From NCBI GenBank assembly GCA_043803815.1, contig JAZDJR010000030.1:1-22905 (forward strand): a stretch of DNA of 22,905 bases. Reading direction: 5' to 3'. Shown here in pieces: positions 3,518-22,650 of this stretch. Numbering within the stretch: position 1 is the stretch's first letter; the number at the start of each line of letters is the position of its first letter. The notes beneath the pieces were generated by a model. That model ran no database searches, was not told the origin of the DNA, and saw only the letters and a program-made list of their open reading frames with translations. Both the position numbers and the translations under genes were made by a program. The stretch comes from Candidatus Micrarchaeota archaeon. Its GTDB lineage: Archaea; Iainarchaeota; Iainarchaeia; Iainarchaeales; JAGVWC01.

Positions 3518-6500
3518 TCATTCTTTTTTGGATTTGGTCCGGATAACCGTAATGGTTCCGATTAAGCCGAGGATGAACAAGGCCAGCAATAGAGGGTTTT
3601 CTGGCAGGGAAGGCAGGTTGAATCCGTTTCCTTTGTCTCCGCCGATGTTCAGGTTCAATAGGTTGCCGGTTGCCTGCGTAGAGACTTTTCCATCGGGCCC
3701 TACCTGGGTGCTTAAACCGTTTTGCTTGAATGCTTCCAATAATGGCAAGAGTTGCGCGTTTTCGGTGTACCATAGGCCTTTGTTGGGGTCGTACCAGAAC
3801 GCGCCTTTGTCGCCTTGCGCGCTGATTAACGGTTCTGGCTGGCCGTTATAGGTAAGTATCGGCTTTCCGCCTTCGGATGAAAAGTCCAGGGTATGCTCTT
3901 TTCCGTCCGCGGTTGTTATTTTAACGCCGTTGGGGGTGGGTGTAATCGAGGTAATGGGCTGGTCGACGAGTGTTTCGCCGGTGTTTTTGTCGATGACTTT
4001 GAAGTAATCCCGGCATTTTCCGTTTTCCAGTTTCGAGTAAAAAATGAACCGCTTGCTTGGCGTGTCGAATATTTTGTAGGGCCCAAAGTTTTGCAGGCTT
4101 TGGTTGAATGCCGCGACTTTGGAAGCGTCCAGTTCGGAGTTCGGATTGGCGAGCGCTTCAAGGTTAATCGCGGGTTCCGCGCACTGGTTTTCGGGGTTGA
4201 CGGAAGTGGTCGGCGTTGCACGCAGCCCTTGCACTTGATTTTGGTTCAGGATGGTTTTTTCATTGCGCTTGAGCCAGACCAATAATTCGTTGGTTTGGGG
4301 ATTGTACAAAATGACGCCGTTTTGAAACTGAATGCTTTGCATATGTCCCACTTGGGGGTCGCCGTCGACGGAAGCAATGAGTTCGGTAGTGGTGTCCGAC
4401 CATACGTCCGCGTGCGAGTCCGGTCCGTCCGCGACTTTGCGGGGAATTCCTTCCGCGGTAATGCGCTGGCTTTCAGGCTGGGAAAAAATCTGGGGATGCG
4501 TGTCGGTTACAATGGCCTGCGTCTTTCCGAATACTTCGCTTAGGTTGTCGCCGGCCATCCCGACGCCGGTCTGAGCTTTTACCCCTTCGCGAATGCAATT
4601 GAGAACCTGCGGATGCAGCACATAAGTGTCGCCGTCGACGTTCATGCGGAAAATAATGGTTTTTTCGTCCGACGGCAATCCGATTTTGGTAATCATGCCG
4701 GGGTATTCCATAGCCGGAATGTTGCTGTTAAGCGTTGCAAACCGCGTGATGTCGGGGTCGGTAATGACGGGTTTTCCGTCGACCAAGACCTGTCCTTTTT
4801 TGAAATCGTTTTTGACGTTTATTTTGCCGTCCGTGATGTCCTGCTCCCCTTCGGTGCGGTATTTGCTCGGCGTCAGTTCGCTTCCGCCTTGCAGCCACAA
4901 ATAAAACAAGTGGGTTCCGGAAAATTGTCCGCTGGTCTGGCCGTTGGTCGTAAGCACGCCTTCAACCAGGTCCTTGGTTTCCGCGTTGCTGATCAAATCG
5001 TCGATTTTCTGCTTGGCATCGTTGGCGGCTTGCCCTGTCCAGCTGTTGGTGTCGCCTTTGAGAGCTCCTAAGACCCTGTCGCTTCCTTCTTTTACTGCGT
5101 TGGCGACTTTGTTCGTGCTTTTGTCCGCCGGGGTTTCGGCTTTTTTGTCGGATTGCGGCGCGGGCGAGAAAAAGTGGATAAAATAGCCTTCCTGCGCGTC
5201 CACGCAGTCCTGTAGTTGGGGCGCAAGCAAAGTTTGCTGCAAGGCGCTTCCCAAAAATCCCGCCCAGGTGAATACCGCGTATCCGAGGGTTTCCATTCCG
5301 ACGAGCACCCCGCCGACGGAGGCGTCTTCGGGAAACACTGCGCCGATTATTGGAATGCTTTTGTTCATTTTTTTAACGAGGTCCTGGCAGGTTGTTTTGT
5401 TCCTCACGGCTTCGTCCAAATCGATGTGGCCTTTGGCGATGTCTTTGGTCTCGCCGCTTAAATTGGTGCGGGAAGCGTAGGCAATCAGGGTTTGGCCGAT
5501 GTCTTTTTGGTCGTTAGGGGTGTCTTCCAAAAAAAACGACTGCAATTTTTGAGGGGAGAAAAAGAAAGGGGAAAAAAGGAAAGTTCCTTTGTGCTGCAGG
5601 GAAATTTTGCAGAGACTGCAGTCTTCGGGCCCCGACGTGTACACGGCAAGGCTTCCGACTTCGCTTCGCGCTTCGTTATGCGTGATGCTCTGGTAAAAGT
5701 CGTTGATGGGATTGTATTCCTGCGATAATTTGTCCAGAATCACTTTCCAGGGAAGCTTGTTCAAAAAGGCGACAAAGATGTCGCCTTGGTCGCTTCCTTC
5801 GTTGGAAAAAAAGTCGATGTAGGAAAATTTGTACAGGTCGCTGTCTCCAAGGTCCAAGGAAAGCGTTTTCCAGGTGTCGGGCAGTTGGTAAAGCGAAATG
5901 GCTTCCTGTCCGAATCCGCGCTTAAATCCCCAAAACGCGAAAGGATAAGCGGTCAGTTTGGCGCCGCCTTTGGGGGACAAATACGATTTGATTATTTGAT
6001 TTTCTTTGGCAAAGTATTGGTCCAACAAGCTGCCCCAGTGTTCGCGGTTCTGGAATCCTTTTTCGCGCAGTACCTGCTGCATGAATGTCAGGTTGTTGGC
6101 AAAGTTTTTGAGGGGCTTTGCGCCTTTGGTTGTCATCATCAGGTCGGCCAAGTCGTCGGCGGATAATTGCCTCGCGGGCTGCCATTTTCCGGTAAACAGT
6201 TCGACATCGCCGCCGCTTTTTTTGAGGATGTAAGCGAGGTTTCCTTTATTGAACGGAACGCTTTCGCCGTTTTCGAGTTTGGCAAACGCACCCGCATAAT
6301 TGTTGTTTTGGATGGCTTCTTCCAAGGCGTCTTTGGTCAGTTTGGCAACGGATTTTTCGGGCTGCAGGGTGTACAATTGGAGCTTTCCGTCAACGGATGT
6401 CAGGCTGGTCCCCCATTTTTTTCCCGTTCCGGTGAGCCATTTTTCGTCGAAATGAAAGTGGCCATCTTCGGCCATTTTGTTAAGCGCCAGGTCGTAAAAG

Positions 6501-8188
6501 TCCGAGTTTTGCGCGAGCTGGGTAAATTCGCCGTCGGATTTTTGAACCGCGTATTTTTGCCAGTCCACGCTTTTGTGGTTCAAGTGCCATTGCGGAACAT
6601 CGATTCCGGTCACGTCATCGATTTGGTCCCAAAGTTTTCCCTGAGTTGCCGCGAATTTTCGCTTTGCGATAATATACCCCGGGTCGGTTGCCAAAAGCCC
6701 TTTGGTTGCCGCCTTGAATTCGTCTTCCGCCAATTGGCGTTCCAGTTCTGTTGAGCGCGCGATGTTTTTCATATTGGTGACATAGTTGTAAACGTTTCCG
6801 CGCTCGATCGGGTCGGTAATCGGCGCGAGTTCTTTCTGAAAGGTCGGGTTCCACCACGCGGAAAATTGCCCGCCTTCCAGCACGGCTTTGTCGCTTACCA
6901 ATTTGGCGTCAAACATCACGCTTTTGGTCCGCAATTGGGCGAGGTTTCGCTTGGTCAGCTCATTAAAGGCGAACTGGTTCGGCCGCTGGTAAAGGCTGCG
7001 GATTCGTTTTCCCAAAGCGGAATCCGAGATTTTGGGGATAAGGTCGGAGCGGATTTTGGCATAGCCGAATGCGCGTCCGGCCTGGTTTAAAAAAGTGGGA
7101 CCAAACGAGCTGAGCAGGGTAAAGCCGCTAGAATACGCGTTGAACATTTTGTCAAACATGGAGTACGTGTTGATGTAGCATGCGGCATTCGTGCAGTTGG
7201 AATTCATGCTCGCGGAAAACGAGTCGGTCAGAATCGAATTGGGGATTATTTTTCCGCGGATGCGCTCCGCGAGCTGCACGGGAACCTGATTGGTGTCCGC
7301 GACCTGCAATAAGGAAGCGCGGACGTCGGCCAGGTCGCTTGGGGGAATTCCCTGGATTGAAACGTTCGCGTCGTTCATTTTGAATTTGTTCCACAGGTGC
7401 GAAAAAACGTTTTTGTAATTCTGAACAATGCCGCTTCCGCTGTTGCGCAGTTCCATGTTCTTGCCGAGGACCGAGCAGTTTTTGGTCATGTCAAGGCAGC
7501 GGCCCGCGCGGACCGAATCGTTGACCAGCAATCCGAATGCGAATGCGCCCGTGGAAAAATTGTTCAGCAGGTGTTCGATTTCGGCGGGGTCTATTTTTTG
7601 GTTGGGAATTTTTTGCTTGATGGCCAAGTCGCCTTTTTCATCCGGAATAATCACGTTGTTTTGGTCGAGTGTTTCGCGGTTTTTTTTGGCGGGCTTTCCC
7701 GCGTCGATTTGTTTTCCGACAAATCCTTTGCGAAGGGTCTCGTCCCATAATTTGTTGCGCTCAAGCGGGGACAATTCCGTATTCGAGCAGGTGAATCCTG
7801 TGCGGCTGGGCGGATTGTACTGGGGGTTGACATCCAGCAGGCTTTGCTGCTGCTGGTTAAGCGGAATTTCCGCGGGAATATTGGGCCGGATAAACGGCTG
7901 GCCGGTATTGGGGTCGATGACTGCGGGGTCTTTGGCAATGGATTGCTGGACTTCGGGAATAAAAAGCGAGTTTAGCGGGTCGTTTGGATTGGACGCGGGA
8001 TTTTGATTTGGGGTGCTTGGGGTATTTAACATCTCATTTAAAGCGCCGGAAGAATTGGGGTTGGAAGCGGGATTTGAACCCGAACCTGGCGCCGGCGAAG
8101 AGGCGGTTTGGGCGATGACTGACACCCACGGCGCGTCCAGTAAAATCAGGATTAAAAAAATGTGCATCCATGCCTGGTAATTCGCCAA
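3518..8188 (-). CDS. Giant (1556 aa) secreted cell-surface protein with C-terminal membrane anchor
   Basis: N-terminal signal peptide (IFLILILLDAPWVSVIA-Q), Ser/Pro/Asn linker and several Cys pairs. The C-terminus is LPSLPEN + hydrophobic helix + RTKSKKE. TTG start with a GGTG SD. Confidence 0.9.
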   Translation of the reverse strand: MANYQAWMHIFLILILLDAPWVSVIAQTASSPAPGSGSNPASNPNSSGALNEMLNTPSTPNQNPASNPNDPLNSLFIPEVQQSIAKDPAVIDPNTGQPFIRPNIPAEIPLNQQQQSLLDVNPQYNPPSRTGFTCSNTELSPLERNKLWDETLRKGFVGKQIDAGKPAKKNRETLDQNNVIIPDEKGDLAIKQKIPNQKIDPAEIEHLLNNFSTGAFAFGLLVNDSVRAGRCLDMTKNCSVLGKNMELRNSGSGIVQNYKNVFSHLWNKFKMNDANVSIQGIPPSDLADVRASLLQVADTNQVPVQLAERIRGKIIPNSILTDSFSASMNSNCTNAACYINTYSMFDKMFNAYSSGFTLLSSFGPTFLNQAGRAFGYAKIRSDLIPKISDSALGKRIRSLYQRPNQFAFNELTKRNLAQLRTKSVMFDAKLVSDKAVLEGGQFSAWWNPTFQKELAPITDPIERGNVYNYVTNMKNIARSTELERQLAEDEFKAATKGLLATDPGYIIAKRKFAATQGKLWDQIDDVTGIDVPQWHLNHKSVDWQKYAVQKSDGEFTQLAQNSDFYDLALNKMAEDGHFHFDEKWLTGTGKKWGTSLTSVDGKLQLYTLQPEKSVAKLTKDALEEAIQNNNYAGAFAKLENGESVPFNKGNLAYILKKSGGDVELFTGKWQPARQLSADDLADLMMTTKGAKPLKNFANNLTFMQQVLREKGFQNREHWGSLLDQYFAKENQIIKSYLSPKGGAKLTAYPFAFWGFKRGFGQEAISLYQLPDTWKTLSLDLGDSDLYKFSYIDFFSNEGSDQGDIFVAFLNKLPWKVILDKLSQEYNPINDFYQSITHNEARSEVGSLAVYTSGPEDCSLCKISLQHKGTFLFSPFFFSPQKLQSFFLEDTPNDQKDIGQTLIAYASRTNLSGETKDIAKGHIDLDEAVRNKTTCQDLVKKMNKSIPIIGAVFPEDASVGGVLVGMETLGYAVFTWAGFLGSALQQTLLAPQLQDCVDAQEGYFIHFFSPAPQSDKKAETPADKSTNKVANAVKEGSDRVLGALKGDTNSWTGQAANDAKQKIDDLISNAETKDLVEGVLTTNGQTSGQFSGTHLFYLWLQGGSELTPSKYRTEGEQDITDGKINVKNDFKKGQVLVDGKPVITDPDITRFATLNSNIPAMEYPGMITKIGLPSDEKTIIFRMNVDGDTYVLHPQVLNCIREGVKAQTGVGMAGDNLSEVFGKTQAIVTDTHPQIFSQPESQRITAEGIPRKVADGPDSHADVWSDTTTELIASVDGDPQVGHMQSIQFQNGVILYNPQTNELLVWLKRNEKTILNQNQVQGLRATPTTSVNPENQCAEPAINLEALANPNSELDASKVAAFNQSLQNFGPYKIFDTPSKRFIFYSKLENGKCRDYFKVIDKNTGETLVDQPITSITPTPNGVKITTADGKEHTLDFSSEGGKPILTYNGQPEPLISAQGDKGAFWYDPNKGLWYTENAQLLPLLEAFKQNGLSTQVGPDGKVSTQATGNLLNLNIGGDKGNGFNLPSLPENPLLLALFILGLIGTITVIRTKSKKE

Positions 8189-8245
8189 AATCGCACCGTA
8201 TTTAATTGGGATTTTGGTAATAAAAGGATTCGCTTGTTTGGGGTT

Positions 8246-8776
8246 TTACGCCCAATAAACAAGGTATATGAGACCCGGAATGGCCCAGGGAATCAAAAAC
8301 AAAATCACGACAGTGGTAACCAAAACCGTCAGCCAAACTGCCCCGATTTTGGCGACCAATGGGTTTTTTGTTTTGGGGGAAAACCATTCAAAGAAAAATA
8401 CTCCCAAAAATTCCAAGGGAAGCAATAACAGCGAGAAAAACAGGGCCAAGGCTAAAATTCGAATCAGAATAAGGCCGTAGGCAAACAATTGTTCGCCAAG
8501 GCCGGATTGCAAAGCTTGCGGAACGGTTCCCAAATCGCTTTCGCGGACCCCAATGCCTGCGGGAACAAAATACGCAAATATTAATACCACTAAAACCACC
8601 AAGTATGTGGTGAACAAAGCGGAGCGCAGCCAGGATTGCTTGTAACGCTTGGAAAAAAATCGGTGAAGCGGAGAAACCAAAAGCACGATTGCGATAATGG
8701 GCAGGCAATACAAAATCGTACCAACCAAAAGCGAAAACAGGGATGAAACCGCGTTTGAAACAAAATCGGCTGCCAT
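8246..8776 (-). CDS. Hypothetical polytopic membrane protein (176 aa, about 4-5 TM)
   Basis: Strongly hydrophobic segments. I prefer ATG 8776 (MAADF) with its GGTG SD, because the track extension to 8947 runs through a repeat region and the divergent gene. Confidence 0.85.
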   Translation of the reverse strand: MAADFVSNAVSSLFSLLVGTILYCLPIIAIVLLVSPLHRFFSKRYKQSWLRSALFTTYLVVLVVLIFAYFVPAGIGVRESDLGTVPQALQSGLGEQLFAYGLILIRILALALFFSLLLLPLEFLGVFFFEWFSPKTKNPLVAKIGAVWLTVLVTTVVILFLIPWAIPGLIYLVYWA

Positions 8777-8816
8777 ATCAAAACACCAACAAAAAGGAAA
8801 AAGAACTATAAAATGG

Positions 8817-8889
8817 TTTTGGGTTGAAAAAAAAAGAGTTTTAGCTGAAAAAAGGATTTTGGGTTGAAAAAAGGGATTGGCTGAAAAAA
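8817..8889. repeat. Four imperfect tandem repeats (about 18-22 nt) in a divergent promoter region
   Basis: TTTTGGGTTGAAAAAAAAAGAG / TTTTAGCTGAAAAAAGGA / TTTTGGGTTGAAAAAAGGGA / TTGGCTGAAAAAA. The 16-mer TTTTGGGTTGAAAAAA is exact at 8817 and 8857. Confidence 0.75.
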
Positions 8890-9665
8890 TGGCGGACATA
8901 ATCGAATTGGGGCTATTTTTGTATTCTTTGGCTGGCAGCGCCAGCATCGGATACTGGATTTTAACGTCGTTTTGGCCTTCGATTCGGGACCGCGACCGTC
9001 AGTTTAAAACCGGCTTGTCCGTGGTGGTAGGCGGCTTGTACATTTTGCTGGTTTTTTTAATCGCCAGTTTTTTAGGGGCCGGCCATTACAACGGCTGGTC
9101 TTTTGTACAGGCATTTTTCTGGCTCGTGCCTGTTTCGTTTATCGTACTGGTCAGCATTTTGCTGGTCAAGCACATGGTTTTGGTCGGCAGGCAAATACAA
9201 TCCGGCGAAATAAACCTGTTTGCCCCAAAAATTGAAATCGCCGCGGAAACCATGCCGTTGCAGGGAAGCGCAGAACTGGTTTCCGAACTCGCAAGCACGG
9301 TTCCGGAAATCGAAAAAACCGAAGTTCCAAGCCCAAGCGTTTCCAGCGAAGAGGTTCTTCCAAAATCCGATTCGAAAAAATCGGCCGCGGATAGTTCCGT
9401 TCCTGTTTCCGAAGTCGTGCCTGGTGAAAACGAAGAGGATGTCGCAAGCGAAATTAAAAAAATCATGTCCGCGGGAAGGTTTGAAGACCAATCCAAACCC
9501 GCGGAAACGGACGAAAAAAAACAGGAATCCAAAACAGCGGATTGGTCGTTTGAAGTCAAAAACGAAATGAATTCCGATTCCCAAAAAACCGGCTTAACTC
9601 AGGAAGAAATCGAAAAAATCAAGGCCGACCTTAAAAAGAAAATCAAGGACAGCCTCGGTCCGTAG
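8889..9665 (+). CDS. Membrane protein: 3 N-terminal TM helices plus acidic low-complexity tail
   Basis: Three hydrophobic segments in the first ~100 aa, then a Glu/Ser/Lys/Pro-rich region and a short C-terminal amphipathic helix (LTQEEIEKIKADLKKKI). I prefer ATG 8889 over TTG 8877. Confidence 0.85.
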   Translation: MADIIELGLFLYSLAGSASIGYWILTSFWPSIRDRDRQFKTGLSVVVGGLYILLVFLIASFLGAGHYNGWSFVQAFFWLVPVSFIVLVSILLVKHMVLVGRQIQSGEINLFAPKIEIAAETMPLQGSAELVSELASTVPEIEKTEVPSPSVSSEEVLPKSDSKKSAADSSVPVSEVVPGENEEDVASEIKKIMSAGRFEDQSKPAETDEKKQESKTADWSFEVKNEMNSDSQKTGLTQEEIEKIKADLKKKIKDSLGP

Positions 9666-9752
9666 CCAAGGTCCGGCTTAAATCCGTCTTTAGGGAATTT
9701 GAAAATCCAAAACAGTCGGTTTTAAAATCAATAAAATCCTTGTTCGTTACCT

Positions 9753-10874
9753 ATGGCGGCTCCAGCAGACCAAAACAGCCTCTTTTCGAATCCGGGACAA
9801 GTAATCGGCCGGCTTTCGGACCAAGCCGCCAAATTTTTTTCCGAAAATACCCTGCTAATCGTTGGAATCGCCGCGGTGATTATTCTTTTAATTATTGTTT
9901 ATTTTTTCGTTTTGCGAAAACGAAAAAACCGAGAACCGGTTCCGCGGGTTCCGCACCCGCCGCGGGCCAGAGGAACCGCTGAACCGACCGAAAATATTTC
10001 TTCTTTTGGAACTCGGATTGGTTCCGATGCAACCGTCCGACAAGTGGTTGATGCAATGGCAACCGGCCAGCCGGTTGCCGGCCAAACCCAACCAGCGGTT
10101 TCTCCCGTTTCCAACCAAAACAAACAAGCGCCGATTGAAAACCCGCTTCCGCAGGTTCCAAAAAAACAGGAAAAAATGCCGCGGCGCATGAAGCGATTTG
10201 AACGCAGGGAAAACGCGGCCGGCGAAAACGCATTCAGAGGGTATTCTTCAGCGGTTCCGGCCAGGCACGGCCGAAGCGAAGAACAAATTCCAGATTTGGA
10301 TGTTTTGGCCGAAAATATCGCCGAAGATGCCCAGCGAAGCGAAGCGGTTGACCGTGAAATGCAGGAACTCCAAAAACGACTGGGCAAAATGCCCAATCCA
10401 AATTCTTCCGCCGCAACAGCAGTTTCTTCCGCGGGAACAAACGCGCAAGTCGGTTCCGGCGAAACGCCCAGCCAGCGTCATCATAGCCGAAGGATGCAAA
10501 AACAGGCCGAAACCCAAAAAGAAGAATCCTCCTCCCCCGCGGTTCCGACGGCTTCCATGGACGCGCTTTCCAAAGTCCAAAATATGGATTTTAAGGACTT
10601 GTTTGAAAACAAGGAAGGAAAAAACAAAAAAAAGAAGAACGAGCTGGACGATGTGGAAAGCGATTTGCAGGAATTGGGAGGCGACGCGGATGACAAGGAC
10701 GGGGACGGAGAGCCGGAAACCTGCCCGTCCTGCCGCAAAGAAACCGAAAAAGTGCTGTATTGCCCCGAATGCGGCAACGCGTTCTGCAAAAACTGCGCGG
10801 CGGCGTTCAAGCGCAAGGGAAATGATTCCTATTTAGTGTGCCCGAAATGCCAGACCGAAGTCAAAAGCGGCTGA
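9753..10874 (+). CDS. Single-pass membrane protein with disordered linker and C-terminal C8 zinc finger
   Basis: TM helix LLIVGIAAVIILLIIVYFFVL followed by RKRKNR. The C-terminus is CxxC-x9-CxxC-x4-CxxC-x14-CxxC (10722-10850). A TATA-like TTTTAAAA lies ~30 nt before the ATG. Confidence 0.9.
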   Translation: MAAPADQNSLFSNPGQVIGRLSDQAAKFFSENTLLIVGIAAVIILLIIVYFFVLRKRKNREPVPRVPHPPRARGTAEPTENISSFGTRIGSDATVRQVVDAMATGQPVAGQTQPAVSPVSNQNKQAPIENPLPQVPKKQEKMPRRMKRFERRENAAGENAFRGYSSAVPARHGRSEEQIPDLDVLAENIAEDAQRSEAVDREMQELQKRLGKMPNPNSSAATAVSSAGTNAQVGSGETPSQRHHSRRMQKQAETQKEESSSPAVPTASMDALSKVQNMDFKDLFENKEGKNKKKKNELDDVESDLQELGGDADDKDGDGEPETCPSCRKETEKVLYCPECGNAFCKNCAAAFKRKGNDSYLVCPKCQTEVKSG

Positions 10875-10903: not shown

Positions 10904-12085
10904 TTAGTTGAAGCTTATTTGCAGGGATTTGGTATCCACAATCGTTCCGTTGACTTTGACATCGAAGTTGCAGGCGGTTGATGTACCTGAAGCCCGCAGA
11001 CCGCTTTTGGACACTCGAAATGTTAATTCATGCGGAGCACCGGCGTTCAGGACAAAACTCGTGGAATTCAATTCGGAAATCAGGTTGCATCCGCCGGTTC
11101 CCGCCTGAACCGATACCTGAACATTTGAGTAATCGGTGGTAGACAAATTCGTCACCCGAATTTTTCCGATGAAGTCGGTGTATTGGCCGGGAGTCGTACT
11201 CGCATTCCAAGTCAGGGAAACCGGCTGGGGAATAAACGAAGCGGTCACGTTTCCGACGGGGCCTCCGGGAATGGCGACAAACGTGGCGATTCGGCACGCA
11301 TCCTGGTTGGCATCGCAGCAATTCAATTTACCCAGCATGTATCCGGGGCTTTGCTCGATAATAGCCGCGCTGGGCCAAAGCGCAAAGTGAACTTCGCTTT
11401 CGATTTTATCAGGCGGGTCGTTTATGCCTTTGGCTTTGGCTAGGATAATATTGGAGGAAGCCTTGTTGATGTTGGGAATCGAAAACAAAAAATTGTCCAC
11501 ATCATTTTTGGTTGCGGGCTTGCAGTAATAAAAAATGTGGCAGCCGGGTTTGCCCGAGGAACACGAAACAGAGTTGTTTAGGGTGTCTTTGACATGGTTT
11601 AAGATGTCAGCCGGAGTCACGGTTCTATACCATAAAAAATACGGGTAGGGATTGATGAGCGGATTTCCGGAGTAAAAATAAAACGCGTAATCGCTGGTGG
11701 ACGCAAGCGGTTTCATGATGGCGGCGATTTGGTCGCGCAAAATCGGCGCGGTTTCGTCCATCGCGCCGTCATCCGCAAAGTCTTCCTTGACCGCGGCCAA
11801 TAAAAAATCGTATTCCGGAACCTTGTCGGTTGAAACGCACGGGTTTCCGGGTATTGCGGGGCAGCAGTCCAACGTGCACTGGGGATTTCGGGGAACGCTG
11901 GTGTACATAATGACTTTGAGCGCACTCGACGCGTAATCGCGGAACTGCTCGTTGGCGGCCTGCGTCGAGAAATTATTGCCGTACGAATTCGCAAAACCCA
12001 ATAAGAACAACGCAAGGGTGCTGGATATCAAAAAAAAGGCGAGTGCATCCGCAACGGAGGACTGGCCTTTGCAATTGAGCTTCAT
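10904..12085 (-). CDS. Large minor pilin/adhesin-like protein with class III signal peptide and C-terminal beta-rich (Ig-like) domain
   Basis: MKLNCKG|QSSVADALAFFLISSTLALFLLGF and many Cys. The C-terminal ~110 aa alternate like beta-strands (KIRVTN, VQVSV, LTFRVS, FDVKVNG). ATG 12085 overlaps the upstream stop (ATGA). Confidence 0.82.
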   Translation of the reverse strand: MKLNCKGQSSVADALAFFLISSTLALFLLGFANSYGNNFSTQAANEQFRDYASSALKVIMYTSVPRNPQCTLDCCPAIPGNPCVSTDKVPEYDFLLAAVKEDFADDGAMDETAPILRDQIAAIMKPLASTSDYAFYFYSGNPLINPYPYFLWYRTVTPADILNHVKDTLNNSVSCSSGKPGCHIFYYCKPATKNDVDNFLFSIPNINKASSNIILAKAKGINDPPDKIESEVHFALWPSAAIIEQSPGYMLGKLNCCDANQDACRIATFVAIPGGPVGNVTASFIPQPVSLTWNASTTPGQYTDFIGKIRVTNLSTTDYSNVQVSVQAGTGGCNLISELNSTSFVLNAGAPHELTFRVSKSGLRASGTSTACNFDVKVNGTIVDTKSLQISFN

Positions 12086-13827: not shown

Positions 13828-13830
13828 GGC

Positions 13831-14100: not shown

Positions 14101-14107
14101 AAAAACC

Positions 14108-14142
14108 ACCTATCAAAATGATAGGTCAAAAACTATATAAAA
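14108..14142 (-). promoter_or_regulatory. TA promoter with palindromic operator
   Basis: Perfect IR ACCTATCA-aaa-TGATAGGT (14108-14126) lies just downstream of minus-strand TTTTATATA (14142-14134). Confidence 0.75.
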
Positions 14143-14727: not shown

Positions 14728-14898
14728 TCACGCGGCTTTTTCTTTAACGGTCTTGATTTGCTGCTGCGAACTCTTGAACATGGGCTTGACTACGGTAATC
14801 AGCAACAGCGCTGCAATAATCAGGACGATTAGCATGTAAAGCGAGTTCCATTCGCTTTGGCAGCGCTTTTCGGACAGCATGCGGCCGAGGTCTTTCAT
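14728..14898 (-). CDS. Very short (56 aa) Flp-like pilin, not in ORF track
   Basis: MKDLGRMLSEKRC|QSEWNSLYMLIVLIIAALLLITVVKPMFKSSQQQIKTVKEKAA*. It ends 6 nt before the next pilin start, and a TATA-like ATTAAATA lies ~25 nt upstream. Confidence 0.82.
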   Translation of the reverse strand: MKDLGRMLSEKRCQSEWNSLYMLIVLIIAALLLITVVKPMFKSSQQQIKTVKEKAA

Positions 14899-15059: not shown

Positions 15060-15578
15060 TTATCCCTTGACGATTCCAATGATGCAGTAAACGTTCGCGG
15101 TTGTTGGTGCTCCAGTGGCCCACTTGACGTTGGAAATTGGCATCGTAGCAATGCCCAATTGGTCGCTGAACGATTTTATGACATTGACGCGGGTATCATC
15201 CAGGCAAAAGGCCACAACTTTGACATCGCGCGCACTGTTTCCGGTATAACGTAATACGCCATTTGTATGATTAAAGAATCCTGTAAGAGCAGCATCAACC
15301 GCAGTGCCGACTTGTTTGTTATCAATTCCAAGTTCGGGCCCTCCAACTGTATAACTGACCACGTCGTCCGCAACCACCTTGATTTTTTCGGATGTAATCA
15401 TGGTGCCTTGGCTGGTTTTGGCCTGGCTTAATTTGTCGCGCGCAATCACGGCGACTTTTTGTCCCGGCGGGCTGATAAGATTCAAAATCCCAAGCAATAC
15501 GCCCAGAATCGCGATTGCAATGACCGCGGAAATCAATAACTGGAAAACGCCCGAACCCTGTCCTTTTCGATTAACCAT
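15060..15578 (-). CDS. Pilin with class III signal peptide, candidate major pilin
   Basis: MVNRKG|QGSGVFQLLISAVIAIAILGVLLGIL. A strong GAGGTG SD, its own TATA box and a U-rich terminator suggest a separate, highly expressed unit. Confidence 0.9.
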   Translation of the reverse strand: MVNRKGQGSGVFQLLISAVIAIAILGVLLGILNLISPPGQKVAVIARDKLSQAKTSQGTMITSEKIKVVADDVVSYTVGGPELGIDNKQVGTAVDAALTGFFNHTNGVLRYTGNSARDVKVVAFCLDDTRVNVIKSFSDQLGIATMPISNVKWATGAPTTANVYCIIGIVKG

Positions 15579-15623
15579 GCTTGCACCTCAAGTAAACAAA
15601 CTCTTCTATGAAGGCGTTTTTAG

Positions 15624-15810: not shown

Positions 15811-17019
15811 ATGGTGCAAAAATTTTTGGTTATTCTTGTCTTTTCAGCACTTTTTGTTGTCTTAAGCGGCTGCACCACTCCCGCGCCTGTTTGCGGCAAT
15901 GGGCAATGCGAAAACCCCGAAAACGCGGAAAACTGCGCAGCGGACTGCCAACAGCAGGGATTCCACTTTGAGTGCTCAAACCAAAAATGCCAGCGGGTTT
16001 CGGGCCAGGGAAACAATTCCTGCGAAAGCGACAATGACTGCGCAATAGCCGCCACGCATCTTGAATGCCAAAACAACGCATGCCGAATTGTTGAAGGCGA
16101 AGGAGAAGACCAATGCCAAAGGGATTCGGACTGCAATGCATCCGGATGCATTGACTGCAGAGCGGTGCAACCGGAAACCTGCGCGGATTCCGACAATGGA
16201 AAAAATTATTACGAAAAAGGCACTGTTGCAATCGGAACAAAAACGTATTCCGATTCGTGCCAGGATGCGAACAAAGTACTGGAATATTATTGTTCAACCG
16301 CCACGCAACAACGGTCGGAACGGCACGTGTGCCCGAACGGTTGCAGCGATGGAAAATGCCAAATCGCATCGTGCACAGCCGGAGAGAAAAAATGCGAGCA
16401 AGACCAAGTGCTGAAATGCGGCACCAACAACGAATGGGCGCTTGAAGCGGAATGCTCCAACGGATGCCAGAATGCGGCCTGTGTTGCGGATTGGTGGTGC
16501 ATGAAACGAAAAATGTATAACCGATTCATGAGCCCGGGCGGTATTTTTGAGCTTATTCCTGTGGAAATAACTGAAACAACGCCCGGTTCCGGAGAATACC
16601 AGATTAAACTGCGGTATAAAAACTCCGACAATGGTATTACTGATATCAAAACCGTTGGGGAAAAAACTTATCTGAGCGATGTTTTTGGAACGGACGATGC
16701 AGGAAAAAAAATAGATTTTGACCGCAATTATTTTGTGGACGAAATCGGTTTTGAAGCGGAAACCGGCAAGAAATACTGGTTCCTTGCAAACGATTCTTGC
16801 AATCCCTGCGAACCCGGACAGCTGGCCTGCATTGGAGCCCAACAGCAGCAATGCAATGCAGAGGGAAACGGCTGGAGCCTCAAAGAGAACTGCTTTAACA
16901 ACTGTGACAATGAAGCCTGCCTTCCGCCCTGCACGCCGGGAGAGCAGAAATGCGAGGTGGGGGTCCTGCAAAAATGCACTGAAAAAGGAATCTGGCAGTT
17001 GAACGGTTTCTGCCCGTAA
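15811..17019 (+). CDS. Cys-rich repeat lipoprotein-like surface protein
   Basis: Lipobox-like VVLSG|C. Modules are CGNGQCE..ENC..DC, two EC...C..V.G.G...C..D.DC repeats, C.DSD.G.NYY.KGTV...LEYYC...CPNGC.DG.C, and three C..G...C.......C.....W.....C repeats. Confidence 0.88.
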   Translation: MVQKFLVILVFSALFVVLSGCTTPAPVCGNGQCENPENAENCAADCQQQGFHFECSNQKCQRVSGQGNNSCESDNDCAIAATHLECQNNACRIVEGEGEDQCQRDSDCNASGCIDCRAVQPETCADSDNGKNYYEKGTVAIGTKTYSDSCQDANKVLEYYCSTATQQRSERHVCPNGCSDGKCQIASCTAGEKKCEQDQVLKCGTNNEWALEAECSNGCQNAACVADWWCMKRKMYNRFMSPGGIFELIPVEITETTPGSGEYQIKLRYKNSDNGITDIKTVGEKTYLSDVFGTDDAGKKIDFDRNYFVDEIGFEAETGKKYWFLANDSCNPCEPGQLACIGAQQQQCNAEGNGWSLKENCFNNCDNEACLPPCTPGEQKCEVGVLQKCTEKGIWQLNGFCP

Positions 17020-17294: not shown

Positions 17295-17765
17295 TCAAGG
17301 ACTGCCAAAAGTGACGCTGCACTGAATGGTTCCAGGACAGTTTGGCGGGTCGGGAGCCATTGTCCGGCAGATGAATATGACATCAGTTTGAAGGTCAAAA
17401 AGGATTTCGGCTTTGCGAATTGAATTATTATTGAGTGTACTGATACGGTCGTCGTATGAAGTAAATGTTATGCAAAGCGGGCCGACCGGGGTGTTGTGGC
17501 CTAAGCCGATTCCGGAAAAAACCGTTCCTTTGCGGAACAATAGTTTTTCGCGCAGCACTTCGTCCCCTGTAGGCGTGTTTAACGCGATTTTGAATCCGTC
17601 GTAAAAGCGCCCTTCGGATAATTGCCATTGGACGCTTCGCACGCTTTCCACCACGCCCAGCACCAAAATAAGGATTAACAGGCCCAGCACCGCGCCGATT
17701 AACAATTTGAACGGCTCGAACTGGCCGGACTGGTTAATCCGTTGCAAATTTATTTTTTTTTTCAT
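17295..17765 (-). CDS. Pilin with class III signal peptide
   Basis: ...RINQSG|QFEPFKLLIGAVLGLLILILVLGVV, with four C-terminal Cys. The N-terminus resembles those of the pilins at 14721 and 15578. Confidence 0.85.
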   Translation of the reverse strand: MKKKINLQRINQSGQFEPFKLLIGAVLGLLILILVLGVVESVRSVQWQLSEGRFYDGFKIALNTPTGDEVLREKLLFRKGTVFSGIGLGHNTPVGPLCITFTSYDDRISTLNNNSIRKAEILFDLQTDVIFICRTMAPDPPNCPGTIQCSVTFGSP

Positions 17766-17963: not shown

Positions 17964-20342
17964 TTATCCTGTCAGGGAGGCGACGACGGTGTTGGAAGCA
18001 AGGACGCTTGCGATGAAAACCAGAATCGCAATCGGGAGGGCGCGTGACAAATTCATTTTGAACAGGGTGTCGTTGTCTTCCTGTATTTTGGTGTTAAAAT
18101 AAGTCATGATGATGACGATTTCCATGACGTAAACCGCAACGATAATCAAAAACAGGCCCGGAGACACAAGGGATTGGAATATTTCGGCGCCGGGCGCGAG
18201 CTTTCCAAGGTTGCCCAGCTGGCCAAAAGCGCTGGTGTTGACAAGGCCGGTGGCAGCGGAACTGGAGCTGATGGTGGAAAAATCGAAATTGGACGTCAAA
18301 TCGCTTTGCGCAAGGTTGGACAAGGTCAAAATAACGACTTTTTGGAGGCTGACCGTAATTCCCAAAATGACGGGCGCAATAAATGTAGCGGTGACCTGCA
18401 TCATTCCCGTAATGTCCGCAACCAAAATAACCAGCAATCGCGAGACTTTTTCGGAATTGGTCAATTGAAGCGAAAGCGAAATTAAGGTGCGCGCGCCGAC
18501 ATTGACGCCTAACTGCACCGAGTCCACCAATAGTTTCATGGAAGTGGTGATAATGTTGGAGTTCAGGTTTTTGAGCGAGCCGAAATTGGAGTCAAAAATC
18601 GCGGCTTCCAAAGGCAGCCCTAAAACGCGGATGTTTTCCACGGTTTTGCCGTATATGCGTTCGGCAATCAGGGTGTTGGGCAAAAATCCCCTAGTGTGCT
18701 GCAATGCTTCTTCAACCGGCTTGTTTTCGCCCATGCGCGAAGCTAAAATGTACAGGCTGTCGCGGAATTCGCTTTCCATTTGGGTTATTTGTTCCTGCAT
18801 TTTGCGTTTGTAGACGTTTCGGTAATACAGTCCCGCGCCGATTGAGGCCGTAATCGTAATGAGGCAGCCGAAAATCAAAAAATACGGGGTTACGTCGTTT
18901 CCGCCTTGCGCGAAAAACTTTTGGCGTTCCAAGGAAATTTCGGCTGCGACGCGTTCAGGGGAGGTCTGGCCGGAAGCCGAAAGTTTTATTTCAAGGGCTC
19001 CGCCTGGCTCGAAATAATCGCATTTTTTGACGTCGCGCTCCAAAACGTCGCAGATACTCTGGTCTTTTGGAATCAGAACGGTTTCTCCGACCGTGATTCC
19101 GTAGCTGCTTAAAAAAACCGAGGCGCCGATGCCGGCCGCAAGGAGAATAAAGACCACGAATCGCACGTCCAAAAAGCCCCTGCCGATTTTCATTTTCCAT
19201 TTTTTAGGCAGGTCGGGATGGTCGTCGGGGATTTCGGGGGACTGGTAGGTGGGCGGCCTTTTTTTGATGACGCTTCGCGCAAACAAAAACGCGGCAGCCG
19301 GAATGACGATGTTGTAAATCATGATTAAAATGTCCGCGCGCGCCAGGGGCTGTTTTGAAAACGCGCCGCCGACCGGTAAAATAATAATCAGAATCAAAGG
19401 CAACAACACTCCGAGGTAAAACAAAAAGACCGAGGGCTGGGACAGGTCGCGCGCGTATTGTTCCATTTTGTTTTTGACGGATTCCAATAATTCCACCATG
19501 GTCTTGTCCAATAAGGCAAAGCGCTTGGCTTCGGTATCTTCCAAAACGGATGCGCGCACCATCATCAGGGAACGCTTAAATTCTTCGGAAAATTTTCCCC
19601 AGCGGTACGCCAGGGCATCCATGGCTTCGGCCAGGGTATTGTAAACGCCCAATTGCACGTCCCAAATCGCTTTTTTAAAATCTTCCGCTATTTTTCCGCG
19701 GCCGTGTTCCGCCGCAAACTCGACTGCTTTTTCCAGGTTGGGAACCAGTTTCATGCTCATGGTCAGGTAACCGATGATTTCCGGAACATAAGTCAGGGCC
19801 TTGATCTGCTCGTCCGCAGCGGCTGCAAGAGGATACTGCTGCACGTACCGAACGACCAGTAAAGCTGCGGCCAAAAGCGGGATAAACAAATAAAAGTAGG
19901 GCAAAAAATCGCTGCTTAGCACTTTGGCCAAAAAGGATACCACGGAAACGTTTTGACAGGAGTCGTTTCCCGCGGCGTCCGGAATTCCGCAAAGCGGAAC
20001 CAATGGAACCGCAAACAATATTCCGGCTATTACAATGACGACAAAAAAGGCGAGAACCATGGACATGGTTACGCCGGCGTTGTATTCGTCGGACTTTAGG
20101 TCCCAGCCCAAAAAATCAACCGCGTTTTTGTGAACATCCGAAAAAGGCTGTTTTCCGCCGAACCCCGGAACGGCTTTTTTGGCCCATTTGCAGTAAAGCA
20201 CAAAACCGGTCTGAACAGGCTTGACCAGGCGGGTTTCACCGCTGCCTACTGCAAACCGGTCAATGGCAATGCTTTTGTATAGTTGCCCGGGCGAAGGCAT
20301 AAAATTCGCTTTTTGGTTTTGCTGTTCCCGTCTGGCTGCCAT
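17964..20342 (-). CDS. Type IV pilus/T2SS-F membrane platform protein (fused TadB/TadC-like)
   Basis: 792 aa with two T2SSF-like cytoplasmic units (PEIIGYLTMSMKLVPNLEKAV and EFRDSLYILASRMGENKPVEEAL), each followed by TM helices. It starts 1 nt downstream of the ATPase. Confidence 0.92.
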   Translation of the reverse strand: MAARREQQNQKANFMPSPGQLYKSIAIDRFAVGSGETRLVKPVQTGFVLYCKWAKKAVPGFGGKQPFSDVHKNAVDFLGWDLKSDEYNAGVTMSMVLAFFVVIVIAGILFAVPLVPLCGIPDAAGNDSCQNVSVVSFLAKVLSSDFLPYFYLFIPLLAAALLVVRYVQQYPLAAAADEQIKALTYVPEIIGYLTMSMKLVPNLEKAVEFAAEHGRGKIAEDFKKAIWDVQLGVYNTLAEAMDALAYRWGKFSEEFKRSLMMVRASVLEDTEAKRFALLDKTMVELLESVKNKMEQYARDLSQPSVFLFYLGVLLPLILIIILPVGGAFSKQPLARADILIMIYNIVIPAAAFLFARSVIKKRPPTYQSPEIPDDHPDLPKKWKMKIGRGFLDVRFVVFILLAAGIGASVFLSSYGITVGETVLIPKDQSICDVLERDVKKCDYFEPGGALEIKLSASGQTSPERVAAEISLERQKFFAQGGNDVTPYFLIFGCLITITASIGAGLYYRNVYKRKMQEQITQMESEFRDSLYILASRMGENKPVEEALQHTRGFLPNTLIAERIYGKTVENIRVLGLPLEAAIFDSNFGSLKNLNSNIITTSMKLLVDSVQLGVNVGARTLISLSLQLTNSEKVSRLLVILVADITGMMQVTATFIAPVILGITVSLQKVVILTLSNLAQSDLTSNFDFSTISSSSAATGLVNTSAFGQLGNLGKLAPGAEIFQSLVSPGLFLIIVAVYVMEIVIIMTYFNTKIQEDNDTLFKMNLSRALPIAILVFIASVLASNTVVASLTG

Positions 20343-20343
20343 T

Positions 20344-22650
20344 TTAGGGTCCTGCGGTTTTGGTTGTTCCGCTTTTTTTATTCAGCAAAGTCTGCACGAT
20401 ATTGTTTTGGACCCAATATTTCCATTTGCCCAGCAGCTGGTCGTAATCCACTTTTTTGCCCAAGGCCAATTGCTCTTCGCGCAAAATCATGTATTTGTTG
20501 TTGCAGACCGAATAATTTTCGGCTTCCAACAGTTCCGGCAGTTCCAGTTTGTTTTTCAGGTCGACCAAAAACGCCTTTGCGGAGGCATTGGCTTTGATTG
20601 AATCCCACATTTCGTTCATGTTTAGGCCGCTGGTTTTGGAGATTCGCTGGAATAATTCCGAATCTTTTAGGCTGTCTTCCTGAAAGCTCAATTTGTCGCC
20701 GCGCGCATCGTACAGCATCAAATCCAAAAGTCCGCCTTCCGTTTCGGGGTCGGTTGTCCAGTGCTTTTTGACTTCCGTTACCTGCGAAACGCGGCGCACG
20801 CGCTTTAAGGAACCTGAAAACCGAATCGGCCTTGCAACCACAATCACGTCGGTTGCCTTAAACGAAGTCGTCGGAACATCCAAATCGTTTACAACGCGGT
20901 CCCAGACGCTGTAGGCGGAGTCGCCGTGAATCGTTCCCAGTACGATGTTTCCCGCGGCGCCGACGCGCATGGCTTCGTACAAAACGCGCGCTTCCTTACT
21001 GCGAACCTCGCCGATAATTAATGCGGAATCGCCGAGGCGAAGTGCGGTACGCAGCGCTTCTTCCGGCGCAACTTCCGTATCCGAAGTTGAAATCGAAATC
21101 GGAGAGCGCGTTTTTAACCGCTGGATGTTAAAGCCGATGTTTTTCATGTATTCCGCTGGAATTTCGAGCGTGTCTTCCTGCACAATAATGCGCGCGTTCT
21201 GCAAAATTTCAAGCATAAGCGCTTGCAAAAGCGAAGTTTTTCCGGATCCGCGGCTTCCCGTCACCAGCATGGTGGCCTGCTGGTCGACAAAAAAGCTCAA
21301 CAGCCCCGCCCCAAGCGGATTGATGAAATTTTTGTCAATGAATTGGGGCAAAGTCCAAGGAGTGACTTTGTGCAGGCGAAACGCAAACGCGGTGCCGTCG
21401 GGTGCGAGCGGCTTTCCGATTACGGCTACGCGCGTATCCAAATCCGGCAAGTCAAAATCCAAAACAGGATGCACTTCATCGAATGGACGGCCGCTCATCG
21501 CGCGCATTTTTGAAACCAGCGAATTGGCTTCTTCTTCGGTGTACAAAATATTGGTCTGGCATTGGCCGTATTCGGAATGCACCACATAAATCGGCTTTTG
21601 GCCGATTGGGGAATCGAGATAAATATCGGTGAGGTTTCGGTCCTGCAAAATCAGTTCGAGTATTCCGTAGCCGACCGTGTAGCGCGCCACGATTTCGGAG
21701 AGTTCCACGGCTTCTTCGGCGGACAAAAAAATCTTGTTGGCCTGCGCGATGTCGTGGATGGTGGATTCGTAAATGCGCTCGAAGTAGCGCCGGCTTTTGG
21801 CAAGGCCGGATAACGTCGCGCGGCCGGGCTTATAGGAAGCCACGATTTCTTTTGTCTTGCTTAAAACAAAATATTTCTGGGGCGGCATCGTGTATTCGGG
21901 CGGATTGATAAAATACATTTTTTCGGTCTTGTTCGGATGGTTGAAAATCTGCACGCTGGCTTTTCCAATCGTGTATTCGTCCAATAATTCGAGTTCTTCC
22001 ATTTCGCGGAACAATAATCGCGAGCCGATAAAGGAAGGCTTGATTTCGCTTTCCAATAAAGTGTGGTAAATTTCCTTGGTGTCGGGAATTTCGCGGAGCT
22101 TTACGATGAATTCCTTGGTTTTGCCGATTAATTCGGTTTCCTCGAATTTTTTTTGCACATAGCGCAGGGTGTCCAGGTAAACCTGATTGCAGGCAACCAA
22201 ATTTTGCGTCGCGGACTTGCCTTTTTCGATTTCTTTTTTGATTTCTTGCAGGCACGTCAGGTAAGCCATGATGGGGTCAAAGCCGATCAAGTCGTGCGTA
22301 ATGCGCACAATCGCGTCGTGGCGTTCGCCGAAAAACTTTTCGCATTCCCCGTCCTGAACGCCTAAGTGCGCGTAGCTCCAAATCGATTCCAGTTCAAACG
22401 ATTTGATTAAGGTGGCCACTTGCTTGAGCATTTTGGTTTGGCTTTCGTCGTAAACGCGGTCGTAGACATCCGCCAAAACAATCAAATCGGCATCAACTTC
22501 CTGAAGCAGGGTCAAAACGTGAAACATGCAGGCGCGTTCGTCGGAAATGCTGGCCTGATAAACCGAGTTCTTGTAGTCGATTACGAGGTGCTTTTTGCCC
22601 CCGACGTCCTTTACGACGTAATCTCCCACTTCAAACTTGCCGATTTTCAC
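20344..22650 (-). CDS. Type II/IV secretion system ATPase (TadA/VirB11/ArlI family) with long N-terminal extension
   Basis: Walker A GSRGSGKT, Asp box QEDTLEI, ALRLGDS, Walker B LIIGEVR and His box GTIHG. GTG start with a GGTGA SD. Confidence 0.97.
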   Translation of the reverse strand: MKIGKFEVGDYVVKDVGGKKHLVIDYKNSVYQASISDERACMFHVLTLLQEVDADLIVLADVYDRVYDESQTKMLKQVATLIKSFELESIWSYAHLGVQDGECEKFFGERHDAIVRITHDLIGFDPIMAYLTCLQEIKKEIEKGKSATQNLVACNQVYLDTLRYVQKKFEETELIGKTKEFIVKLREIPDTKEIYHTLLESEIKPSFIGSRLLFREMEELELLDEYTIGKASVQIFNHPNKTEKMYFINPPEYTMPPQKYFVLSKTKEIVASYKPGRATLSGLAKSRRYFERIYESTIHDIAQANKIFLSAEEAVELSEIVARYTVGYGILELILQDRNLTDIYLDSPIGQKPIYVVHSEYGQCQTNILYTEEEANSLVSKMRAMSGRPFDEVHPVLDFDLPDLDTRVAVIGKPLAPDGTAFAFRLHKVTPWTLPQFIDKNFINPLGAGLLSFFVDQQATMLVTGSRGSGKTSLLQALMLEILQNARIIVQEDTLEIPAEYMKNIGFNIQRLKTRSPISISTSDTEVAPEEALRTALRLGDSALIIGEVRSKEARVLYEAMRVGAAGNIVLGTIHGDSAYSVWDRVVNDLDVPTTSFKATDVIVVARPIRFSGSLKRVRRVSQVTEVKKHWTTDPETEGGLLDLMLYDARGDKLSFQEDSLKDSELFQRISKTSGLNMNEMWDSIKANASAKAFLVDLKNKLELPELLEAENYSVCNNKYMILREEQLALGKKVDYDQLLGKWKYWVQNNIVQTLLNKKSGTTKTAGP

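Follow-up and report, generated by a model that had tools for sequence, protein, structure and literature searches.

We analysed a 22,905-nucleotide stretch of archaeal DNA (hereafter, the window), which is an entire contig (JAZDJR010000030.1) of the assembly GCA_043803815.1, deposited as a Candidatus Micrarchaeota archaeon and placed by GTDB in the order Iainarchaeales of the Iainarchaeota. The genome (G000) comprises 1.08 Mb and is 85.6% complete. The window contains a type IV pilus-like locus in which the genes for an assembly ATPase, a membrane platform protein, and seven pilin-like proteins lie beside the gene for a giant secreted protein with a C-terminal sorting-type signal. The gene content, motifs, synteny, and co-occurrence described below recur across two phyla of the DPANN archaea (Diapherotrites, Parvarchaeota, and Aenigmarchaeota, together with Nanoarchaeota and Nanohaloarchaeota). 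A first-pass annotation of positions 3518–22650, made from the sequence alone, had described the region as a candidate host-contact machine, and every gene that it listed was recovered at its position by open reading frame (ORF) listing and translation. The features of the window are as follows (lengths in amino acids, aa; TM, transmembrane; an arrow stands within each pilin-like N-terminal motif).

810–1910, minus strand: IS5-like transposase (ORF and family scan)
2013–2762, plus strand: PAC2-family gene (PF09754, 6e-43)
3518–8188, minus strand: giant secreted protein, 1,556 aa, with a signal peptide and a C-terminal TM segment; probable start M8 (8167)
3521–3616, minus strand: sorting-type signal NLPSLPEN, TM helix, and RTKSKKE, forming the C-terminal end of the giant protein
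8246–8776, minus strand: 4-TM protein, ~176 aa; start M58 according to the orthologues (the ORF itself extends to 8947)
8889–9665, plus strand: 2–3 TM protein with a long acidic/charged tail; probable start M5 of the ORF beginning at 8877
9753–10874, plus strand: TM-tethered disordered protein, 373 aa, with a C-terminal 8-Cys zinc domain (~10719–10853)
10904–12091, minus strand: pilin-like protein, 395 aa, CKG↓QSSVADALAFF
12082–12729, minus strand: pilin-like protein, 215 aa, KG↓FIGPIGDDLPSLIPL
12791–13492, minus strand: pilin-like protein, 233 aa, with the very short leader MLD↓F
13570–14109, minus strand: toxin–antitoxin pair (ParD/RelB-like antitoxin and small toxin)
14158–14721, minus strand: pilin-like protein, 187 aa, QRG↓QEAAPFEVLVAV
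~14728–14898, minus strand: mini-pilin ORF, ~50–56 aa, RCQ↓SEWNSLYMLIVLIIAALLLITVVKPMF, below the 60-aa minimum of the ORF list
15060–15578, minus strand: pilin-like protein, 172 aa, RKG↓QGSGVFQLLISAV
15811–17019, plus strand: Cys-rich lipoprotein with an LSGC lipobox and repeated Cys modules
17295–17765, minus strand: pilin-like protein, 156 aa, with a class III-type N-terminus
17964–20342, minus strand: polytopic platform protein, 792 aa, with a single sub-cut-off T2SSF match
20344–22650, minus strand: T2SSE assembly ATPase, 768 aa (PF00437)

The window ORFs were scanned against Pfam and NCBIfam. For comparison within the order, we used 61 genomes (genomes are labelled G and fetched loci L). 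From 30 of these genomes, 34 stretches were fetched and compared using tblastn and ORF clustering, and 13 further contigs carrying the giant gene were fetched from genomes in which the ATPase gene lies on a separate contig.

In terms of the core machinery, the ATPase matched PF00437 (T2SSE) at 66.2 bits (cut-off 24.9), which places it among the secretion-superfamily ATPases. Its closest solved structures were GspE of A. fulgidus (2OAP; 2.7e-33), followed by CpaF (1.2e-24) and FlaI, and its N-terminal region of ~300 aa is specific to the clade. The ATPase family was present in all 61 genomes of the order, and orthologue-level matches, which showed 56–76% identity and spanned the N-terminal ~300 aa, were found in 58 of them (all except G016, G039, and G046). 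An archaellum identity was rejected, with a score of 142 bits on the FlaI model against a cut-off of 550 and no archaellum family among the 18 window proteins. The earlier statement that the archaellum genes and a prepilin peptidase are absent from the window held in the Pfam and NCBIfam scans of its proteins. The prepilin peptidase family PF01478 (Peptidase_A24) was also not found in the 85.6% of the genome that is represented in G000; it was present in 60 of 60 relatives, where it is unlinked to the pilus locus.

The protein encoded next to the ATPase had been called a fused platform. It is a multi-TM protein, and its orthologue adjoins the ATPase in most loci of the order, but it gave only a single T2SSF match, at 19.7 bits (20.4–24.8 bits in three orthologues; cut-off 25.2), and its C-terminal half showed neither a T2SSF match nor self-similarity. 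Because no second T2SSF domain was detected, the label "fused" is unverified.

Two features of the ATPase family may be recorded here. The N-terminal region of most orthologues contains a near-invariant C26-x2-C29 ... C41-x2-H44 pattern, and the window protein has Y26 and S29 in place of the two Cys, so that half of this probable metal site is lost. In other relatives, the orthologous ATPase lies in open frames of 1,225–1,835 aa (G002:C13, G003:C109, G028:C13, G034:C14, G037:C37, G038:C19, G043:C4, and G054:C32), and the match breaks at residue ~489–495, near the P-loop region. These oversized genes look as if they contain one or more intein insertions; the window gene has no such insertion.

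In each of the seven pilin-like families, a hydrophobic helix comes after a conserved (K/R)(G/A)↓Q or G↓F, an arrangement judged by eye to be of class III type. The first-pass annotation had also counted seven pilin-like proteins; six of the genes are listed ORFs, and the seventh is the unlisted mini-ORF. The class III-type N-termini of the six ORFs ((K/R)G↓Q, KG↓FIGPIGDD, and MLG↓F) were kept in 20–29 orthologues each. The 156-, 172-, and 187-aa proteins clustered together as one paralogous family. The 172-aa protein had 20 orthologues and the 187-aa protein 28, the latter heading a four-gene block that is retained beside the giant gene. Within this block, MLGF(T/I)LSK(L/I)NLLI was common to 28 orthologues of the 233-aa protein, and the motif of the 215-aa protein was found in 28 orthologues and was recognisable in Micrarchaeota loci too. 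The 395-aa protein had 27 orthologues, mostly of 220–320 aa, and the window copy carries a C-terminal extension of ~140 aa relative to most of them. The mini-pilin, which is Flp-like in size, matched a conserved cluster (c15) in four other loci (L022, L025, L026, and L042). None of the pilin-like families had a match in Pfam or NCBIfam.

The giant protein was represented by one homologue of ~1,500 aa in 59 of the 61 genomes of the order (31–62% identity), and the two genomes without it are 68% and 83% complete. Its homologues are annotated, if at all, as hypothetical proteins, under the source names archaeon GW2011_AR10, Candidatus Diapherotrites, Candidatus ainarchaeum, and, loosely, Micrarchaeota; these names assign the organism to the Iainarchaeota (Diapherotrites), which are a DPANN lineage. 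The protein has an ordinary globular composition, with 12 sequons in 1,556 aa and 12 Cys, seven of which are invariant in 26 aligned orthologues; judged from its sequence, it is probably exported by Sec and stabilised by disulfides. Neither the window protein nor the 26 relatives scanned with it belongs to a Pfam family, and the window protein matched no NCBIfam model and hence no known CTERM model. A PDB profile search returned no hits, and the ESM Atlas returned no usable hit. AlphaFold2 models built on 57-row alignments had mean predicted local distance difference test (pLDDT) values of 76 and 75. In these models, ~430 C-terminal residues were all-beta with pLDDT >90, and the N-terminal part contained a helical bundle. 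No Foldseek match was obtained at E ≤0.1 for the N-terminal model (residues 126–720). When a profile of residues 700–1530 was compared with 1.84 billion representative proteins, 214 clusters (at 50% identity) were recovered at E ≤1e-3, of which 118 were at ≤1e-30, including a distant tier of homologues of 1,200–1,650 aa that match through the C-terminal region. The giant protein belongs to a new family, with no Pfam family, PDB sequence relative, or convincing fold match.

The giant gene and the ATPase gene were on one contig in 30 genomes and lay no more than 16 kb apart in 26 of these, the four in which they were far apart being G005, G032, G036, and G055. The recurring order, observed in many families, is ATPase, platform, 156, 172, (variable genes), 187, 233, 215, 395, the opposite-strand zinc/TM genes, 4-TM, and giant. 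The tightest association was that of the giant gene with the 187-233-215-395 pilin block, which it accompanied in 37 of 38 informative loci; among the 13 added contigs, all eight with enough sequence retained this block beside the giant gene. The exception was L032 (G057:C24), which reads giant, 4-TM, 156, platform, and ATPase, with the four-pilin block and the zinc/TM genes missing there. The junction on the other side of the giant gene, used as a control, was looser: the PAC2 gene occupied it in 15 of 30 loci, and c12, c17, or unclustered ORFs in the others. The ATPase gene, with or without the platform gene, was relocated in at least five lineages (G005/G036, G055/G040, G032, G043, and G033). 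It moved alone in G005 and G036 and together with a sortase gene in G055, and in G040, where a weak sortase-family match adjoins it, it is found on a different contig. In G032, the ATPase, platform, and 156 genes departed as a unit, and G043 and G033 show further breaks between the four-pilin block and the platform gene. Inverted segments were found in G009, G022, and G029. Throughout the rearrangements in G005, G036, G055, G040, G032, G009, G022, and G029, the giant gene remained beside the four-pilin block.

Outside the order, a scan of one genome per species identified 13 loci with a homologue of the giant gene, all from genomes titled Candidatus Micrarchaeota or Norongarragalinales. L073, L077, and L080 show the same succession of pilin genes, fused TM–zinc gene, small gene for a 3-TM protein, and giant gene; L077 and L080 also carry the platform gene, and L073 starts inside the pilin genes. 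The PAC2 gene was in none of the 13 loci. Co-occurrence was counted genome by genome, irrespective of kinship, in 121 evenly sampled Micrarchaeota genomes; the giant-protein negatives include G094 (flagged unpublished). The giant protein was found in 11 of these genomes. A platform orthologue (E ≤1e-100) occurred in precisely these 11, with one weak hit to a paralogue besides; the two genes were no more than 10 kb apart in four of the 11. These 11 genomes, and none of the remaining 110, also contained the sortase subtype that adjoins the ATPase in the order (see below), with E values of 1e-24 to 1e-30; one long-type sortase gave a cross-hit at 1e-8. This small sortase abuts the platform gene in G178 and G179 and lies ~5 kb from it in G121 and ~8 kb in G142. 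Where giant-negative genomes encode a sortase, it is mostly of the long type (~500–540 aa). The first-pass annotation had proposed the genes at 3518–10874 as possible accessory components of an attachment or uptake apparatus; linkage to, and co-occurrence with, this ATPase/platform clade were found for them both in the order and in a second phylum, so the outcome that would have refuted the proposal, homologues neither linked to nor co-occurring with the clade, did not arise.

N(L/I)P-x-x-P(E), a TM helix, and a basic tail close the giant protein in 26 of 26 aligned orthologues. Among 10 distant homologues read, LPxxP(E/Q/T/N) with a TM segment and a basic tail was present in seven, and an IPL variant in two. 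Such a tripartite layout of motif, TM segment, and basic cluster is described for the substrates of sortases, exosortases, and archaeosortases (PMC6098224). Approximately seven ORFs of at least 250 aa in G000 are secreted and C-terminally anchored, including the giant protein, which is the sole ORF of the genome with an LPxxPE-type end. G000 also has a single gene of the exosortase/archaeosortase family (C1:234–779), positioned outside the window at the beginning of contig C1, which is 2.3 kb long; the enzyme scores 43.9 bits on TIGR04178 (cut-off 23). Two small archaeosortase paralogues of ~160–200 aa occur across the order, and one of them lies within 3 kb of the orthologous ATPase gene, usually divergently, in 20 of 61 genomes. 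The G000 copy belongs to this ATPase-adjacent type, in 12 members of which C76, R118, and H138 are invariant. The small sortase scored far below the cut-off of every named subfamily model (ArtA–F, pacearchaeosortase, heimdallarchaeosortase, and XrtX), and is a new subtype outside these subfamilies. The LPxxPE signal of the giant protein is most likely recognised by this dedicated enzyme. The sorting signal, the off-window partner archaeosortase, and the zinc domain described below had all been overlooked in the earlier inventory of parts.

Two further giant proteins of 2,794 and 3,065 aa are encoded at G000:C14:94626–103007 (minus strand) and 83695–92889 (minus strand). Both have a single TM segment, lack a C-terminal anchor, and share a conserved cytoplasmic N-terminus, Y..EDK.Y..LD.L..KGIP. 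In relatives, this family comes after the ATPase-adjacent sortase (L042 and L044) and moves with the sortase when the ATPase is split off; it is also found near the giant gene in the Micrarchaeota locus L075. Near-identical copies of an IS3-family transposase terminate the G000 contigs C1 (1924–2325) and C14 (103139–104355). Together with the IS5-like transposase at the left side of the window, these suggest that insertion sequences probably broke the assembly around this super-locus.

Between the giant gene and the pilin genes lie three genes for membrane proteins. The protein earlier described as a 4–5 TM protein at 8246–8947 is indeed a membrane protein, but a 19-sequence alignment places its start at M58, giving ~176 aa and four TM segments. 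In 28 of the 29 loci other than the window, a 4-TM ORF was found immediately upstream of the giant gene. Pfam and NCBIfam provided no family lead, and the Atlas hits were all <0.9, with TM-scores <0.5. The possibility that this protein is a hidden sortase was ruled out, because the catalytic Cys, Arg, and His are not conserved in the alignment. The 2–3 TM gene, whose acidic tail was recognised from hydropathy and composition, keeps its position on the opposite strand between the pilin genes and the 4-TM gene. The protein encoded at 9753–10874 has one TM segment, then a disordered stretch, and then the 8-Cys domain, in which C26, C29, C39, C42, C47, C50, C65, and C68 are invariant in 23 sequences, three of them from Micrarchaeota. 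In L017, L023, L073, L077, and L080, a single fused gene encodes both the TM protein and the zinc protein. A complex prediction with the N-terminal 310 aa of the ATPase, the zinc domain (75 aa), and two Zn scored 0.00 in both runs and is evidence neither way.

Two features named in the first-pass annotation did not recur as parts of the array. The Cys-rich lipoprotein had a single weak match (L026) among 34 loci, and the toxin–antitoxin pair had one match, outside the array; both are window-specific insertions. The toxin–antitoxin pair sits between two pilin genes in G000 alone, and relatives of the toxin were found a few kb from the giant gene in the Micrarchaeota loci L072 and L076 and near the relocated ATPase in L040. 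The first-pass interpretation is supported in part: linkage and co-occurrence hold for the genes at 3518–10874, and the lipoprotein and the toxin–antitoxin pair are not conserved parts of the array. On the far side of the giant gene, a gene of ~215 aa (c12) lies downstream on the same strand in seven loci (L016, L017, L019, L023, L024, L027, and L032); as read from the sequence, its N-terminus resembles a helix-turn-helix, and the window lacks this gene. T2SSF-like membrane genes (cluster c11) lie beside the PAC2 gene, upstream of it, in L013, L015, L024, L025, L029, L031, L043, and L045, and are preceded by a second, distant secretion ATPase in L043 and L045, so the PAC2 gene may be part of a second ATPase/platform operon next to this one. 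The IS5-like transposase fills the place of c11 in the window. No RNA run was listed for the window DNA; the one run listed was a DNA run with a 0.09 share of its words.

We read these observations as a lineage-wide type IV pilus-like (type IV filament) locus whose genes at 3518–10874 belong to the same co-inherited surface module, the whole forming an adhesive apparatus with a sortase-anchored giant protein, and we assign this reading a probability of about 0.5. Under this reading, the giant protein would be exported by Sec and cleaved at its LPxxPE signal by the small archaeosortase, which is encoded on C1 in G000 and divergently beside the pilus ATPase in relatives; the cleaved protein would be left lipid-anchored on the cell surface. 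As the giant gene is tied most tightly to the four pilin-like genes, our working model is that their products behave like minor pilins in docking or presenting the giant protein, on the pattern of PilY1 with FimU-PilVWX. The 4-TM protein would serve the giant protein as its membrane partner, and the charged, TM-tethered protein that ends in the 8-Cys zinc domain would be a cytoplasmic scaffold. We infer the sortase processing, the physical contacts, the adhesion, and any host-contact role from genes and motifs, and a translocator role, which had also been suggested for the genes at 3518–10874, finds no support. More speculatively, the small archaeosortase might couple the giant protein to the filament by cutting LPxxPE and handing or joining the 170-kDa ectodomain to the four-pilin complex, a step that we regard as improbable. 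If it were true, the result would be a sortase-loaded type IV filament with a giant adhesin at its tip or base, an archaeal counterpart of the sortase-built pili of Gram-positive bacteria combined with PilY1, and a cell-contact organ of the Iainarchaeota and some Micrarchaeota.

Several observations weigh against the adhesive apparatus as we have described it. The evidence is wholly genomic. The giant gene is unlinked in five Micrarchaeota loci with enough flanking sequence (L072, L075, L076, L078, and L082), all five of these genomes holding a platform orthologue elsewhere, and the 11 positive Micrarchaeota genomes could belong to a single clade, in which case one or two evolutionary events may account for the perfect co-occurrence. 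Synteny in the order is not fully specific either, given the recurrence of PAC2 beside the giant gene, and the 8-Cys motif makes the zinc-domain gene recognisable in only 20 of 30 giant-protein loci. In G000 itself, the sortase is on another contig, and C1 has no sequence overlap with the end of the window. A permanent C-terminal membrane or lipid anchor also fits a PilY1-type pilus-tip adhesin poorly. The main rival explanation is an envelope island without mechanical coupling. The giant protein would then be an independent surface protein anchored by a sortase, for instance as an adhesin, as an enzyme, or as an accessory of the surface layer (S-layer), and an ancestral gene order would simply have been kept in small, slowly rearranging genomes. 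Unrelated-looking genes are indeed conserved neighbours here, namely PAC2 (15/30), the second ATPase/platform pair (c11), and a protein of >2,600 aa (c13) after the sortase. Five Micrarchaeota genomes hold the giant and platform genes unlinked. Moreover, a giant protein with a Sec signal and an anchor of its own does not require the pilus machinery for export. However, the giant–pilin junction (37/38) is far stabler than the giant–PAC2 junction (15/30, and 0/13 in Micrarchaeota), and it was the four pilin genes, not the flanking genes, that the giant gene followed through several rearrangements. The linkage also persists across two phyla, and the sortase subtype is located at the ATPase gene rather than at that of its presumed substrate. 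For these reasons, we consider such an island possible but on balance doubtful.

Another rival is a bindosome-like or type II secretion-like device, in which the pilin-like proteins would form only a short pseudopilus that sets the giant protein in place in the envelope or assembles it there, and no long adhesive filament would be built. In its favour are the many different pilin-like families, of which four cannot be separated from the giant gene, and the lack of an obvious abundant major pilin that could be named from the sequence. The ATPase does match the BasE model weakly (5.4e-21), but its 74.9 bits, against a cut-off of 1000, are fewer than those of the FlaI and TadA matches, and the Flp-sized mini-pilin and the three paralogous small pilins fit a real filament. 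The sugar-binding clients of the bindosome carry a class III signal, which the giant protein does not, and we think this arrangement unlikely. Finally, the giant protein could be the S-layer protein itself, lipid-anchored by archaeosortase as in Haloferax. Its signal peptide, large ectodomain, tripartite C-terminus, and order-wide single copy match the sortase-anchored S-layer glycoproteins (PMC6098224). Against this, G000 encodes a separate secreted protein of 925 aa (G000:C13:12661–15462, minus strand) that is rich in Thr, Gly, and Ser, contains two Cys, and matches PF05124 (S_layer_C) above the cut-off in two pieces. A candidate of this type was found in 46 of 61 relatives, above the cut-off in 39, and proteins of this kind are reported to form the S-layer of a cultured Micrarchaeon (bioRxiv 10.1101/2021.04.28.441871). 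The sequence match makes the 925-aa protein the likely true S-layer protein of the organism, and the giant protein is an unlikely one because this separate protein exists. The giant protein and its relatives contained no PF05123 or PF05124 domain, and the giant protein, with its globular composition, 12 Cys (seven invariant), and 12 sequons, matches no S-layer family and is unusually conserved for an S-layer protein. Taken together, these features make an S-layer identity highly improbable.

The means by which DPANN archaea hold surfaces or partner cells are, to our knowledge, largely unknown, and we know of no cultured members of the Iainarchaeota or of this branch of the Micrarchaeota. The locus supplies a defined and conserved list of parts, comprising a pilus motor, seven pilin-like proteins, the giant protein, a sortase subtype with its motif, a 4-TM partner, and a zinc-domain scaffold, and is a good candidate for the attachment of these cells to surfaces or other cells. 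It would add a sortase–signal pair outside the named archaeosortase subfamilies, and would for the first time connect an archaeosortase with a type IV filament locus on genomic grounds. A 2019 survey noted "dark matter" islands of type IV pilus genes in DPANN, with FlaI, TadC, surface proteins, and unrecognisable pilins, and gives no detail of them (PMC6393860). In a term search of a 2016 survey of archaeal pili, the terms DPANN, Diapherotrites, Micrarchae, and archaeosortase were absent (PMC4858521). Neither the giant family nor a link between sortase and pilus appeared in the titles and opening lines of abstracts of the papers listed on DPANN pili, archaeosortases, and Micrarchaeota S-layers.

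Among known systems, the Tad/Flp pili share with this locus an ATPase resembling CpaF (1.2e-24) and TadA, and a Flp-sized mini-pilin beside larger pseudopilin-like proteins. Identity with them was rejected, as the score on the TadA model (TIGR03819) was 128.9 bits against a cut-off of 373; in addition, no equivalents of TadZ, RcpA, or TadD were seen in the window, and the best structural match is the archaeal GspE 2OAP. In the bacterial type IVa pili, PilY1 is a large Sec-exported non-pilin that is encoded with the minor pilins FimU-PilVWX(E). The giant protein is similarly a large non-pilin with a Sec signal, co-inherited with approximately four minor-pilin-like genes, and its C-terminal part is modelled as all-beta. 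It differs in being archaeal and in carrying a C-terminal TM segment and a sorting signal, which PilY1 lacks; it has no sequence similarity to PilY1, and the modified beta-propeller domain of PilY1 and Neisseria PilC was not found in it.

The archaeal type IV pili (for example, Epd of Methanococcus and PilB-PilC of Haloferax; PMC4858521) are alike in their ATPase, polytopic platform protein, and several class III-type proteins per locus. In the relatives of G000, the prepilin peptidase is encoded elsewhere. The differences lie in the ~300-aa N-terminal region of the ATPase, the platform of ~790 aa with its one sub-cut-off T2SSF match, the pilin families unmatched in Pfam and NCBIfam, and the joining of a giant sorting-signal protein and a sortase to the locus. 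A further point of comparison is provided by archaeosortase A and PGF-CTERM, known from the S-layer glycoprotein of Haloferax volcanii, and by the other Art/Xrt pairs (PMC6098224). The polytopic enzyme with conserved Cys, Arg, and His, the Sec substrate with a motif, a TM segment, and a basic tail, and the co-occurrence of enzyme subtype and motif are shared with these pairs. Unlike the named archaeosortases, the sortase here is short (~160–200 aa), with its gene at the pilus ATPase, and the motif is LPxxPE in place of PGF, PEF, or VPXXXP, apparently with a single substrate per genome. The module is real and strongly conserved. Its core machine is of a known kind, and what extends it here, the giant protein with the sortase as well as the 4-TM protein and the zinc scaffold, is undescribed.

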